A DNA stretch of 63,445 bases, the filler included, from Octopus bimaculoides (lineage: Eukaryota), in the NCBI RefSeq assembly GCF_001194135.2. It is 5 parts of 5 records of this genome, joined end to end, with 100 filler letters (N's around TTAATTAATTAA, not from the genome) between each part and the next. Parts side by side here need not be neighbours in the genome. Positions count along the whole stretch, not along the records: positions 1 to 19,725 come from NC_068995.1; positions 19,826 to 37,726 come from NC_068982.1; positions 37,827 to 52,850 come from NC_068993.1; positions 52,951 to 60,182 come from NW_026340064.1; 1 more part is not named here. One strand, written 5' to 3'. The notes below the pieces were generated by a model. The model saw nothing but the letters and a program-made list of their open reading frames with translations. It was not told the DNA's origin and did no database searches. This document shows, piece after piece, positions 3,693 to 53,460 of this stretch; within the stretch, counting starts at the first letter, position 1; the number at the start of each line of letters is the position of its first letter. Position numbers and translations under genes: made by a program.

Positions 3693-4227
3693 TTAGTTAA
3701 TTGGGTACGACGTTTCACGGTTAAGGGTATGAAGTTCCCTATTCCGATCTTCAGCCTCAACATTCGAATAAATTTGCTAGTGTCTAATAACTCATGTGAA
3801 TTTTGACCATGCGACATCAAGACCACGTGAGGCAGACACTAAGAAATTTATCGGCTAGTGAGTTTAAAACACCTCACCTCAATGAATCTATTCGATGTGT
3901 GTCATAAATAGTCCCGTATAGAAAAAGGTCCCGTATGGCGGGTTGCGGTTTTACCATCCAACTTAGAGGCATTACTATAAAATATATAGGACAGGGAATC
4001 CTCAATTAGTAATAAAATTAATAATTAACAATTTTGCCGAGTAGGTCAGTATGAAAAAACCTTTATCGATAAATTTCTTAGTGTCTGCCTCACGTGGTCT
4101 TGATGTCGCATGGTCAAAATTCACATGAGTTATTAGACACTAGTAAATTTATTCGAATATTGAGGCTGAAGATCGGAATAGGGAACTTCATACCCTTAAC
4201 CGTGAAACGTCGTACCCAATTAACTAA
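3693..4227. repeat. Young fold-back element: 161-bp inverted arms (3693-3853 / 4067-4227) with a 213-bp spacer
   Basis: The arms differ at 2 positions by eye. The right arm runs into an N gap. Confidence 0.9.
4159..4220 (+). ncRNA. Hammerhead-like motif (family H1); mirror copy at 3709-3754 on the minus strand
   Basis: CTGAAGA 4166-72, nested stem CGG/CCG plus AGGG/CCCT, GAAAC 4204-08, GTC 4209-11. Helix I pairs only imperfectly. Confidence 0.5.
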
Positions 4228-4680
4228 NNNNNNNNNNNNNNNNNNNNNNNNNNNNNNNNNNNNNNNNNNNNNNNNNNNNNNNNNNNNNNNNNNNNNNNNN
4301 NNNNNNNNNNNNNNNNNNNNNNNNNNNNNNNNNNNNNNNNNNNNNNNNNNNNNNNNNNNNNNNNNNNNNNNNNNNNNNNNNNNNNNNNNNNNNNNNNNNN
4401 NNNNNNNNNNNNNNNNNNNNNNNNNNNNNNNNNNNNNNNNNNNNNNNNNNNNNNNNNNNNNNNNNNNNNNNNNNNNNNNNNNNNNNNNNNNNNNNNNNNN
4501 NNNNNNNNNNNNNNNNNNNNNNNNNNNNNNNNNNNNNNNNNNNNNNNNNNNNNNNNNNNNNNNNNNNNNNNNNNNNNNNNNNNNNNNNNNNNNNNNNNNN
4601 NNNNNNNNNNNNNNNNNNNNNNNNNNTATATATATGTATGTATGTATGTATGTATGTATGTATGCAAGTATGTATGTATG

Positions 4681-4712
4681 TATTTATCCCCACATTTATG
4701 TGGGGATAAATA
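4681..4712. repeat. Perfect 32-bp palindrome
   Basis: TATTTATCCCCACAT-TT-ATGTGGGGATAAATA (15-bp arms). Confidence 0.9.
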
Positions 4713-5269
4713 TTACCTGTCGGTATTACTACTGATTCTGTCACTAATAAATATTTTTTAACAAGCTCGCTGGCTAATCGCGACACCAGCGCCTGTTCTG
4801 TCACTTATTCTACGTATCAAGCTTTTGTGAATTTATATACATTCTTAGGCACATACACACACACACATTTATACCCATGTATACACACATGCATACACAC
4901 ATGCATACAAACATACATACACACATACATACATACATTCATACTCTTGACGATTCCTAACTCTAACCCTCACTCTTCATAGCGTGTGGCCAAATCAATA
5001 GTTGTCACTCCCATGTATCCATTATACATACATACATACATACATACATATATATTCTTTTATTTTACACTAATATACATATGCCTGTATATACCAACTT
5101 ATATCTACCTAAAGATACTTCCATTTTTGCTCTCATGAATGTACATCTCACCGTGTTACACTACCAATCATTTCCTACTTACGTTATAATATTCCATCAA
5201 AATAAAAAGGTCCATTCTATAGTCACAGCTAAAAAGCACAAATCAGTATCTATGACTGGTTAGGTTATT

Positions 5270-5500
5270 CAACAGCAGCGAAATCCGCAATCAGTACACC
5301 ATAGCAGTTAGAAATAGATTTGAGCAACTACAAAATGGAAATGAAAAACAACCCCAACACAGTTTTGTAACATTCCATAGAGAAGTTGCAACAGAGGTCA
5401 TACCTACAAAGGTAAGAACTAATAAATGTATTGACTGTGATGACCAAGAAATAATAAACAAGAGAAAACACTCCAAAGAAGGGGCTCAAGCTAAATTTAT
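5270..5500 (+). mobile_element. Degenerate LINE ORF2 fragment (linker between endonuclease and RT, RTE-like)
   Basis: Reads NQYTIAVRNRFEQLQ...FHREVATEVIPTKVRTNK, which resembles the Y..V.NRF..L...A...IP.K motif of LINE ORF2. Confidence 0.5.
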
Positions 5501-50144: not shown

Positions 50145-50475
50145 GGATAAAGGTAAAGACCTCCTTCGGTCATGAATGACCATGGTATGACCTAAAAAGT
50201 TTCCCTCCAAGATACGACTGTGGGTAAGATTGTTTACAGAAGACCAGCAGTCACCCATGCATACTAGCCTCCCCTCTCCACTCCACTGATGTTATCCAAG
50301 GGAAAGGCAAAGGCCGATACAGCTTGGCATCAGTGACGTTGCAACTCATTTCTACAGCTGAGGGAACTGGAGGTAACGTGAAATAAAGTGTCCTGCTCAA
50401 AAGCACAACAGTCGGAATCGAACTCACTAACTCATGATTGTGAACCCGATGCTCTAACCGCTGAGTCATGTACAT
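50145..50475 (-). mobile_element. tRNA-SINE with a family-E-like centre and a different 3' tail
   Basis: On the minus strand: CTCAGCGGTTAGAGCATCGG...GAGTTCGATTCCGAC head, GAGCAGGACACTTTATTTCAC...CAGCTGTAGAAATGAG, tail GAAGGAGGTCTTTACCTT. Confidence 0.8.
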
Positions 50476-51544
50476 TCACACACACAACACCCTCCTCACA
50501 CGCATGTATGTATAGTATATGTGTATATATACATATCACTCTCTATATTTGATATTTATATGCACATACGTATATCTATCTATCTATCTATCTAATTATC
50601 TATCTATCTATCTATCTATCTCTCTCTCTCTCTCTCTCTCTCTCTCTNNNNNNNNNNNNNNNNNNNNNNNNNNNNNNNNNNNNNNNNNNTATATATATAT
50701 ATATATATATATATATATCTAACTGAACTACCATATAAATACTTACTTGTGTAGGCTTACAAAGTATAAACTTTCATGTTAAAACTATTTCTAACACTTA
50801 GTTAATTCTTTAAATAAGTCATTGGCATTGCTTAAGTAGCTTAAAATCACTAACATCTACATAAAATGTCTTCTTAAGTAGCACACACGCATAATCCGAA
50901 CATGCCTTTATATGTGTGTGTATATATATATATATATATACATACATACATACACAGATTCGTGTATGCTCACATATATGGATATATGATTAATTATGTG
51001 TTCGTATGTAAGAGGATTTTAATCCAAAGACTAAGGAGGTCAGTCATACAATAAAAGAACTACATACATTTGAATAGAGAGTAATTATTTTTATTTTAAA
51101 TATAAGCCATACGAAGGTACCAACGTATCAAACCTCCTGACTGAGCTCTAAGGCAATTTCAGTACGAAGACTTGTTTGATATATCCTTTGTTAATTATAT
51201 AATTGCATAATTACACATTAACTCTGTCAACGCAAGAGACTTCTCGGTTATGGTGAATATGCCATACAAAGGAAGCAATCGATGTCATAGTCGCTGAATG
51301 ATTACTTACCTTCATTTTCCAGCCCCTATGTTTCGTATCAACTGTGATCTTCTGAAATTACGTATTGCACATTCATCTCACAAAATGGTATATTTGCCTC
51401 TACCATTCAAACTACAGTTGAATAACTGTGAATTCATTTCCATGATATTATTGGTTATTATATAAACAGTACTCTACTATTAAAAGACATTAATCATCCA
51501 CCAATGCTTCTTTTAATTCATGGCTAACGTATACAGAAGCATAT

Positions 51545-51936
51545 GCAGGCGTGGCTGTGTGGTAAGAAGTTTGCTTCTAAATCATATTGTTCTGGGTTCA
51601 GTCCTACAGCGTAGTACCTTAGGCAAGTGTCTTCTGCAATAGCCTCAGACCGACCAAAGCCTTTTAAGTGGATTTGGTAGATGGAAACTGAAAAAAGCCC
51701 GTCGTATATAAATATATGTGTGTGTGTATGTGTATGTGTGTTCCCCCATCACTGCTTGACGACTGGTGTTGGTGTGTTTGTGTCCCATAACTTAGTGGTT
51801 CAGCCAAAGAGACCAATAGAATAATTAACCAGGCTTAAAGAAATAAGTACGGCGTCGATTCATTTGACTAAAAATTCAAGGTGGTGTCCCAGCATGGCCG
51901 CAGTCTAATGACTGAAACAAGCAAAAGATAAAAGAT
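51545..51936 (+). mobile_element. tRNA-SINE family A, full length
   Basis: A box TGGCTGTGTGG, B box GGTTCAGTCC, internal (TG/TA)n, tail GAAACAAGCAAAAGATAAAAGAT. Confidence 0.9.
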
Positions 51937-53345
51937 ATGTACATACATATATACATCCATCCATACATACATATATATATATATATATATATGTATATGC
52001 ACACACACACACACACACACACACATGTCAGTGAGTCCTTATAATTCTGTTTTACTACCAGCACTACACCAAACTTATGTAGAATGACATATTAAAACGA
52101 ATTAAATTTGATCATATTCAAACAATTCTTTATCACCATCCGCAGTTGTAAACATCCTCTCTCATTACGTCATCCTTGGCCACTCATTCTTAATGTCTGT
52201 CACTCTCTCGCCTGTCACTATTCATCAATTAGCACTCAACTTTGTCACTAAACTTATTCGCTCTGCTATCAAACCTACTTGCATCCGGTCCCAGTAATTA
52301 TGGGACTGCCTTACCAACAATCCTCGTGTAGCTGTCTAACACACCCTTTACTCTTCCCTTTACGACTCTTTCCTTTTCTTATCTTTCTGGTTCGTTTTTA
52401 TTACTCTATCACCCTCTTACTCAGGATTCCTTTCATCACTCGTGGAGGCAGCAGATGGTGAACAAAAATCTTGAGGGGAAAATCTTTAGGTAGAAAAGAT
52501 AACAACCTTTCTAGTACTGGTGCTGTGATAAAATGCAATCAGTACGCTCTATATAGTCGCTGGTTACTGGAAGTGCATCCAGCAGTAGAAAATATATCAA
52601 AATGCAACATACAGGTGAAACGTGGCCTCCAGTGTGGTGTGGCTAGAAAAGTAATATGACTTTGAATTAGAAATAGTACAGTCAGTAACGATCCGTCTAA
52701 CCTATGTGAGCAAAGAAAAACTGAGTAAGCCAACGTGCTTTACCGGTAAATTATCAGGTTTATACCATACGATTTATTAACTAATAACTCTTAACTAATA
52801 ATATATGTATGCATATGTATATATATATATATATATATATATATATATATNNNNNNNNNNNNNNNNNNNNNNNNNNNNNNNNNNNNNNNNNNNNTTAATT
52901 AATTAANNNNNNNNNNNNNNNNNNNNNNNNNNNNNNNNNNNNNNNNNNNNAGCTTTCGTATAATATTTCAAAATATTATATGCAAGCCTGCTTTTTCTTG
53001 CATTATATTCAAATAGCATATAATTCAAGAGAAAGCAGGCTTGGATTACCAGTTGAAAGGGCGGGAACATGAAACTCTGAGTAGAGGCTATTATGAGTTT
53101 TGGAGTTATAATAAGTTAAAGTATACTCTACGTTGACGTATTGAGTTCTGTAACTTATCGCTTCTTGAGGAATTAAAAGAAATTAATATGCGTGTGTCTG
53201 TATGTCTGTCAGTCTATCTCTCTGTATATATATATATGTATGTATGTATGTATGTATGTATGTATGTATGTAATACAAATAATATATGAGTATATGCATA
53301 TATACGTACATGTGTGTACATACCTATATCTACATGTATATATAG

Positions 53346-53460
53346 ATGCATATCTGGGTACAGGACGTTGCAAAAAAAACGTGGACAAAATGATAAACAG
53401 AGTACAGAAAATACACAGGCCACATAGAGAACATTTCCTTCATCAGCTGCCACCATTCTA
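53346..53460 (-). mobile_element. Family D arm with a hammerhead-like remnant
   Basis: On the minus strand: GGTGGCAG-CTGATGA-AGGAAA...TTTTT-GCAAC-GTC-CTGTACC. Confidence 0.65.

Follow-up and report, generated by a model that had tools for sequence, protein, structure and literature searches.

In this study, we analyzed a stretch of 63,445 nucleotides (nt) from Octopus bimaculoides, called the window below, for repeats that carry motifs resembling hammerhead ribozymes. The window is gapped, microsatellite-rich animal DNA with 8022 N and a GC content of about 0.3; all copy and pair counts given here refer to it. The original prediction, made from the sequence alone, had assigned hammerhead-like cores to four repeat families, here H1, D, C and F, and had proposed inverted pairs in three of them as a possible palindromic class of elements related to Penelope-like elements (PLEs). 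The main subject is family D, for which a rewired hammerhead is predicted.

Copies and layout of family D

Family D occurs as three insertions. The first is the inverted pair of subfamily D1, consisting of a long arm at 6114-6760 on the minus strand, whose 3' end and tail lie within a TA-rich microsatellite, and a shorter inverted arm without tail at 6839-7243 on the plus strand. The second, of subfamily D2, is a single arm with a tail at 53317-53560 on the minus strand. The third is a truncated copy at 44500-44660 on the plus strand, which has a tail and no ribozyme, as it begins downstream of the core; the ribozyme originally assigned to a copy at 44497 is therefore absent. In the core-bearing copies, GAAA and the cleavage triplet lie upstream of CUGAUGA and no GAAAC-GUH is found downstream of it, the reverse of how the motif had been read. 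The blocks follow the order X'-Y-10.x-L1-16.x-UH-1.x-11.x-GAAA-15.x-L3-2.x-CUGAnGA-X, with a linker of 2-6 nt between 1.x and 11.x. The strands of helices I, II, III, L1/L3, X and Y are complementary, and the partner of helix II is the strand upstream of the site block.

In the left D1 arm, the predicted motif spans 6249-6373 (minus strand), with X' at 6373-6370, hairpin Y at 6369-6331, G10.1 at 6330, L1 at 6324-6317, H17 at 6304, the helix I strand at 6303-6297, G12 at 6289, L3 at 6274-6267, CUGAUGA at 6259-6253, and X at 6252-6249. The right arm holds it at 6978-7100 (plus strand), with G10.1 at 7019, H17 at 7045, G12 at 7060, and the core at 7090; here, pair 15.2-16.2 and one pair of X are broken. 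In D2, it lies at 53435-53548 (minus strand), with X' at 53548-53544, G10.1 at 53513, L1 at 53507-53499, H17 at 53490, G12 at 53474, L3 at 53461-53453, and CUGAUGA at 53446-53440; two changes in helix III of this copy are absent from the majority of reads.

The elements expected of a hammerhead, i.e. CUGAnGA, GAAA and an NUH triplet, are present and conserved, with AUC and the broken 15.2-16.2 pair in the right D1 arm. Helices I, II and III can form with A15.1-U16.1 and G10.1-C11.1 if the upstream strand serves as 10.x. The order of minimal type I hammerheads (CUGAnGA, helix II, GAAA, palindrome, UH) is not found in D. Its order of site block, GAAA block and CUGAnGA, together with a helix between stems I and II, is that of type SGC; the rule of this type that CUGAnGA directly precedes its stem II strand fails, as at most three weak pairs can form there. 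The pseudoknot (PK) hammerhead does not fit either, because D has no continuous A9-G10.1 with a loop II pseudoknot to helix IV. The layout lies outside the six permutations of Eckert et al. (2023). D is likely a non-circularly wired hammerhead with its core split at A9/G10.1, predicted to be re-closed by a four-way junction. A plain SGC fold with the clamp between the strands flanking the CUGAnGA block was also considered and dropped, since the upstream strand and L1/L3 give longer, covarying helices.

Pairing, covariation and read evidence

With majority letters, the left D1 arm pairs in X (4/4), outer Y (7/7), II (4/5), L1/L3 (8/8), III (five Watson-Crick pairs and one G-U of six) and I (7/7). 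The right arm gives 3/4 for X, 5/5 and 7/7 for Y, four Watson-Crick pairs and one G-U of five for II, 7/8 for L1/L3, four Watson-Crick pairs and one G-U of six for III, and 7/7 for I. In D2, X (5/5), inner Y (6/6), II (6/6) and L1/L3 (9/9) are complete, helix I has five of six pairs, and helix III has two of four, or all four with majority letters. Between D1 and D2, double changes that preserve pairing were found in helices I (two pairs), II, X, Y and L1/L3. For comparison, a run of at least eight pairs occurred in 2.7% of random 15-by-15 segments.

Sequence words from the D1 stretch occur in runs of three organisms. RNA reads (1748 and 1477) and contigs (7743 and 7478) aligned to 6114-6760. 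Among the 40 of 311 difference rows listed for this region, majority letters at 6267, 6269, 6283, 6285, 6321 and 6366 restore pairs of L1/L3, III and Y. At 53415-53525, 884 RNA reads and 1581 contigs came from one run, and two other organisms contributed one and three contigs. Helix III of D2 regains its pairs with the letters at 53468 and 53469, which make up 99% and 97% of contig depth, and the complete table of 18 rows holds no variant of at least 10% in CUGAUGA, GAAAC, GUC or the 1.x strand. The RNA reads of D have roughly equal depth on both strands and stem from many decayed copies, and standard RNA-seq is weak for detecting cleavage. At 6244, 236 and 156 RNA reads indicate another, putative D-like subfamily, which has CUGAUGA and differs from the others in its helix I strand.

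A four-block descriptor found two of the three core-bearing D copies (scores 16.5 and 13), against eight matches in 300 shuffles with a top score of 11.5. In a loose scan for the six permutations, the left D1 arm ranked first with 14.5, a score that is weak on its own because shuffles reached 14.0. In minimum free energy folding, which cannot represent crossing helices, the three D copies had z-scores of -3.1, -0.75 and -1.7; the type I motifs and the head of family C all stayed above -1.

Family D and Naiad elements

A six-helix order identical to that of D, built from other letters in each helix, was seen by eye in at least 9 of 54 Naiad consensus records in the supplement of Craig et al. 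(2021). These are Obim, Ovul, Amil, Aacu, Anas, Naiad-2_Movir, one Clytia record and two that by file position are probably Plae and EuTe; together they make up six distinct sequence sets. In these records, no more than one base separates X' from Y or Y from G10.1. The layout was not visible in the incomplete records Omin and Adux. The 1.x strand of D2 is identical to that of the Octopus Naiads. All four D copies are abutted by TA-rich repeats, a preference for (TA)n that Naiads show and that is not unique to them: the Naiad target is TA microsatellites, and Ovul is flagged 'HHR_half_core' with a (TA)n target (PMC8557442). The same paper reports Naiads to be without canonical hammerheads and gives only the flags 'HHR_core' or 'HHR_half_core'. 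The Naiad open reading frame (N-terminal GIY-YIG, CxC, C-terminal reverse transcriptase) has no Pfam match in the approximately 670 nt of the D long arm; 3'-untranslated regions of Octopus Naiads are about 1 kb long. We infer the membership of D in the Naiads from the ribozyme layout and the target rather than from the reading frame.

By eye, nematode and spider Naiads resemble type I hammerheads whose helix II is long; Naiad-Ppla appears type II-like. The Naiads are therefore mixed, and several layouts seem to lie behind the 'core' and 'half-core' flags.

Inverted pairs and insertion footprints

The repeats and their four inverted pairs (one in H1, one in D, two in C) are real, and in 4/4 the strand of ribozyme sense reads outward, just as had been described. 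Identity between arms is 159/161 (98.8%) for H1 (3693-3853 and 4067-4227), 358/396 for D (6114-6512 and 6839-7239), 61/70 for the C pair at 34640, and 95/101 for the heads of the C pair at 42105. Inverted pairs make up four of nine insertions, i.e. 1/1 in H1, 1/3 in D, 2/3 in C, and none in family F (0/1) or in a fifth motif family at 45304 (0/1); single-arm copies of C and D are also present. The tail is one-sided in 2/2 pairs of C and in the one pair of D, and H1 is interrupted by a gap. In both C pairs, the left arm ends about 30 nt before the right arm, and in D only the long arm kept the tail. Target duplications of 13 bp and 15 bp were found at C-34640 and C-46373, respectively; C-42105 has only a 6-nt match and H1 has none.

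The common 3' end, 5' truncation, inverted copy and one-sided tail of 30-40 nt agree with PLE insertions, which are 5'-truncated, often have a truncated copy in inverted orientation at the 5' end, and bear a tail of 30-40 bp on one side only (Craig et al. 2021, PMC8557442). The inverted pairs are this known insertion signature and as such ordinary, so the claim of a new palindromic class of elements falls away. They would arise at insertion, when the reverse transcriptase may add a second, inverted and shorter copy without tail. Minimal hammerheads need a same-sense dimer (Cervera and de la Peña 2014, PMC4209133), which a pair should be unable to form, because its two cores lie on opposite strands, one per transcript. 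A hairpin from read-through of an inverted pair would bury the sense core, and double-stranded RNA from the inverted arms is possible. Retrozymes without long terminal repeats (non-LTR retrozymes) are defined by units that follow one another head to tail and each contain a type I hammerhead; no such tandem was found in the window.

Family C with a tRNA-like head

Three insertions belong to family C. The short inverted structure at 34621-34861 comprises arms at 34631-34850 and a target duplication (34621 and 34849), with a left arm that has neither CUGAUGA nor tail. The head-to-head pair at 42105-42594 has tRNA-like heads with A and B boxes at 42304 (minus strand) and 42313 (plus strand), followed by (AAT)n and a minimal type I hammerhead tail; in its left arm, the tail is absent and an internal stretch is deleted, and no convincing target duplication is seen. 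The single copy at 46361-46719 on the plus strand consists of a head with A and B boxes (46376), (AAT)n, a decayed minimal hammerhead and the tail, between target duplication copies at 46361 and 46705. Both inverted left arms start inside helix II and thus have no CUGAUGA, and in the right or single arms the core or a helix is broken in 3/3; the cores attributed to C are not confirmed as originally described. The inverted arms resume at the same point of helix II (34701-34705 and 42168-42181), and the arrangement at 42105 resembles a deletion between short identical words.

A and B boxes with the spacing of tRNA genes (33 nt) were found at 3/3 heads and in none of 40 shuffles; ARAGORN and Rfam did not call the head a tRNA. 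The likeliest reading, held as somewhat more probable than not, is that C is a passenger of a PLE resembling a short interspersed nuclear element (SINE) with a putative tRNA-type promoter. The proposed non-autonomy of the families is supported for C, through this tRNA-like head, and only for C. A description of a SINE mobilized by PLEs was not found in the open text of the literature searched; subscription papers, figures and bioRxiv supplements could hold one. A fourth pair of A and B boxes with 33-nt spacing lies outside family C at 50468 (minus strand) and is probably another SINE head.

Minimal type I motifs

The left arm of H1 (3693-3853, minus strand) holds a minimal type I hammerhead with its core at 3754, a self-complementary helix III and one bulge in helix I. 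The right arm (4067-4227, plus strand) has the same motif with its core at 4166 and enters an assembly gap. CUGAAGA and GAAAC-GUC-GUA are intact in both arms. Family F (35025-35153, plus strand) adjoins a gap and contains a decayed minimal type I hammerhead with an ACGU helix III, two changes in CUGAnGA and one in GAAA. H1, C and F have the order of minimal type I PLE hammerheads with self-complementary helix III, C and F only across copies or with mismatches, and an intact core is found among them only in H1. The three families are ordinary minimal type I hammerheads, mostly decayed. The hammerhead-like cores of the original prediction thus stand for both arms of H1, whereas D had been misread, C is decayed and F carries three changes; likewise, PLE-type minimal type I motifs with self-complementary helix III are confirmed for H1, C and F and not for D, which follows another order.

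An intact type I hammerhead that had gone unlisted lies at 45245-45311 on the minus strand, with its core at 45304, a helix I of 5 bp and a palindromic helix III of 8 nt; it represents a fifth motif family without Pfam match upstream. A further type I-like motif at 30060-30140 (minus strand; core 30122) has a palindromic helix III, and its helix I partner was apparently displaced by an insertion. A strict type I descriptor, controlled with 12 shuffles, matched only the motif at 45304 and gave two matches in the shuffles; none of the loci named originally passed it. Rfam gave no support either, with no hammerhead or tRNA model among the 150 of 283 whole-window matches listed or in three fully listed local scans. 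A pattern scan for relatives of the motifs yielded one viral and 13 metagenome loci, which is chance level, with no BLAST match to the window, and two further pattern scans gave no matches.

Further features of the window

Broken reading frames at 16777-18137 (minus strand) resemble a transposase that we take to be of the pogo/Tigger type. Fragments at 8200-9118 and 37779-38171 (both minus strand) resemble a reverse transcriptase of LINEs (long interspersed nuclear elements), and a fragment at 1950-2150 (minus strand), which adjoins a gap, resembles a Tc1/mariner transposase.

Discussion

Taken together, we consider it quite probable that the repeats are 5'-truncated PLE insertions and that D is the 3' end of a Naiad-type element with a predicted split and re-clamped hammerhead. 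As judged from sequence, the D fold is well supported as conserved, and the predicted catalyst is unproven. According to the model, helices I, II and III would cross as in the SGC/CSG class, L1/L3 would act as the clamp between stems I and II, and X would stack on Y. By this stacking, A9 and G10.1, distant in sequence, would become adjacent at the nick, and X, Y, helix II and the core would form a four-way junction. The RNA is predicted to be cut after GUC, leaving a defined end about 145-190 nt from the 3' end of the element. Since its helix III is a normal stem of 4-6 bp, D, in contrast to minimal PLE hammerheads, would be cut in monomeric form, and cutting would await transcription of the full motif because X closes last. 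A wider reading, held with somewhat more confidence than doubt, is that cnidarian, acanthocephalan, crustacean and octopus Naiads carry an active, monomer-cutting hammerhead of a seventh layout (non-circularly permuted, split at A9/G10.1, with a four-way junction) as part of the 'missing' Naiad ribozymes, and that family C represents a SINE with a tRNA head, mobilized by the machinery of Penelope elements.

Several observations weigh against these interpretations. Each of the three core-bearing D copies in the window is damaged in at least one helix: D2 has a broken base of Y, and the left D1 arm has a C-C mismatch in helix II and, in inner Y, three of six pairs in the register of the model, with the predicted fold giving six pairs in another register. 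The four-block descriptor is post hoc, as it was written after D had been seen, and on the left D1 arm it chose the nearer GAAG at 6314 instead of the position at 6330. The variant evidence for D1 comes from a part of the difference rows, and an RNA variant of D2 at 53450 (about 14%) has no partner change listed. RNA-seq read ends do not pile up at the predicted sites in 6114-6760 and 53415-53525, and depth is flat across 53490 without a drop. The reading of the Naiad records by eye covered passages around CUGAnGA words and two parts of the supplement, fewer than all 54 ends; among them, Aacu has two mismatches, X is weak in Obim and Ovul, and in Esco helices I and III are kept with an unclear partner for helix II. 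Pfam domains of reverse transcriptase or GIY-YIG were not found in 24 frames around four loci, which gave only two sub-threshold DUF matches. The negative ARAGORN and Rfam results for the C head belong here as well.

Among the alternatives, the one that survives best, although unlikely, is that the D fold is conserved and no longer cuts, serving instead as a protein-binding or reverse-transcription signal. The absence of read ends at the predicted sites would fit, and a break between A9 and G10.1 may disable the metal site. Mutating the hammerhead of the anole PLE had no effect on insertion in vitro; however, the anole hammerhead also lacks RNA-seq ends and was nevertheless cleaved in vitro (PMC11167929). 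Moreover, D2 reads and the Naiad records from several phyla retain both the catalytic letters and the cleavage triplet, which speaks against this alternative.

It is very unlikely that the repeats form a dedicated palindromic, non-autonomous class in which inverted symmetry defines the mobile unit and yields long double-stranded RNA. The share of inverted insertions and the near-identity of the H1 arms would suit such a class. On the other hand, arm lengths and junctions vary by copy, single arms and one-sided tails occur, the pattern is general to PLEs, and the inverted arms of C are without half the core. Even less can be said for D as a plain type-SGC hammerhead, with helix II formed by the strand after CUGAUGA and the upstream pairing as an alternative or inhibitory fold. 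D does share with the SGC variants of Eckert et al. the order S-G-C, a linker of 2-3 nt and the extra base after A9 (PMC10085705), and the strand after the core can form G10.1-C11.1 plus two more pairs in the left D1 arm and D2. Yet this strand gives at most three consecutive pairs, mostly G-U, and one in the right D1 arm, against five to six for the upstream strand; in the cnidarian and two further Naiad records, viewed by eye, it cannot supply G10.1, whereas the first base of the upstream strand is a G, which pairs with C11.1. That the inverted pairs are assembly artefacts is hardly tenable: despite the many N, the position of H1 between two gaps and the lack of a contig spanning the D stretch, the arms show differences of 1-13%, and a 13-bp target duplication borders the pair at 34640.

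If true, the split-core form would break the assumption of an uninterrupted CUGAnGA block on which the view of hammerhead layouts as closed at six depends, and would explain the failure of descriptor and Rfam searches to detect ribozymes of this kind. The statement that Naiads are without hammerheads would need revision. Validated non-circular hammerheads were known from environmental sequence, and the split-core form would lie in animal retroelements. The motifs of D and the Naiads are directly testable with short constructs and offer natural compensatory pairs in six helices.

Comparison with known systems

The layout of D was not described in the literature searched, though subscription papers, figures and bioRxiv supplements could hold it; no such variant was found in the accessible parts of Forgia 2023 and Perreault 2011. 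Weinberg 2015, Eckert 2023 and Forgia 2023 are the sources given in a 2026 paper for 'additional helices or alternative permutations'. Eckert et al. list six orders and assume that CUGAnGA always stays joined to its stem II strand; their SGC hammerheads come from metatranscriptomes and not from genomes of known organisms, and the stem I-II clamp was shown to be necessary in SGC ribozymes (PMC10085705). D resembles type SGC/CSG in the crossing order of site, GAAA and CUGAnGA, the short linker between stems I and II, and the clamp, represented by L1/L3; it differs in that 10.x lies far upstream and two extra helices, X and Y, join the core. With the PK hammerhead (Zhan et al. 2024, PMC11300833), D shares an extra helix and a pseudoknot around the core. 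In the PK form, however, a short local stem is closed by A9, G10.1 and C11.1, loop II is the partner of the extra helix, and the core strand is unopened.

Like Naiad PLEs, D has TA-microsatellite targets, 5' truncation, inverted copies, a one-sided tail and CUGAnGA near the 3' end (PMC8557442); beyond layout and helix I, no sequence match is evident by eye. The minimal type I PLE hammerheads share the palindromic helix III and an extra base after A9 with H1, C, F and the 45304 motif, and their G10.1-C11.1 is found in C and F, whereas D is of a different type (PMC4209133). Non-LTR retrozymes (PMC7229834; Li et al. 2026, preprint) are, like the families of the window, non-coding, hammerhead-bearing and PLE-related, but unlike the copies described here are defined by head-to-tail tandem units with type I hammerheads (PMC7229834). 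Family C, finally, shares with tRNA-derived SINEs, as these are generally known, the head with A and B boxes, the simple-repeat body and the target duplications, and differs from them by a 3' end that consists of a PLE-type hammerhead and a one-sided tail instead of a LINE tail.

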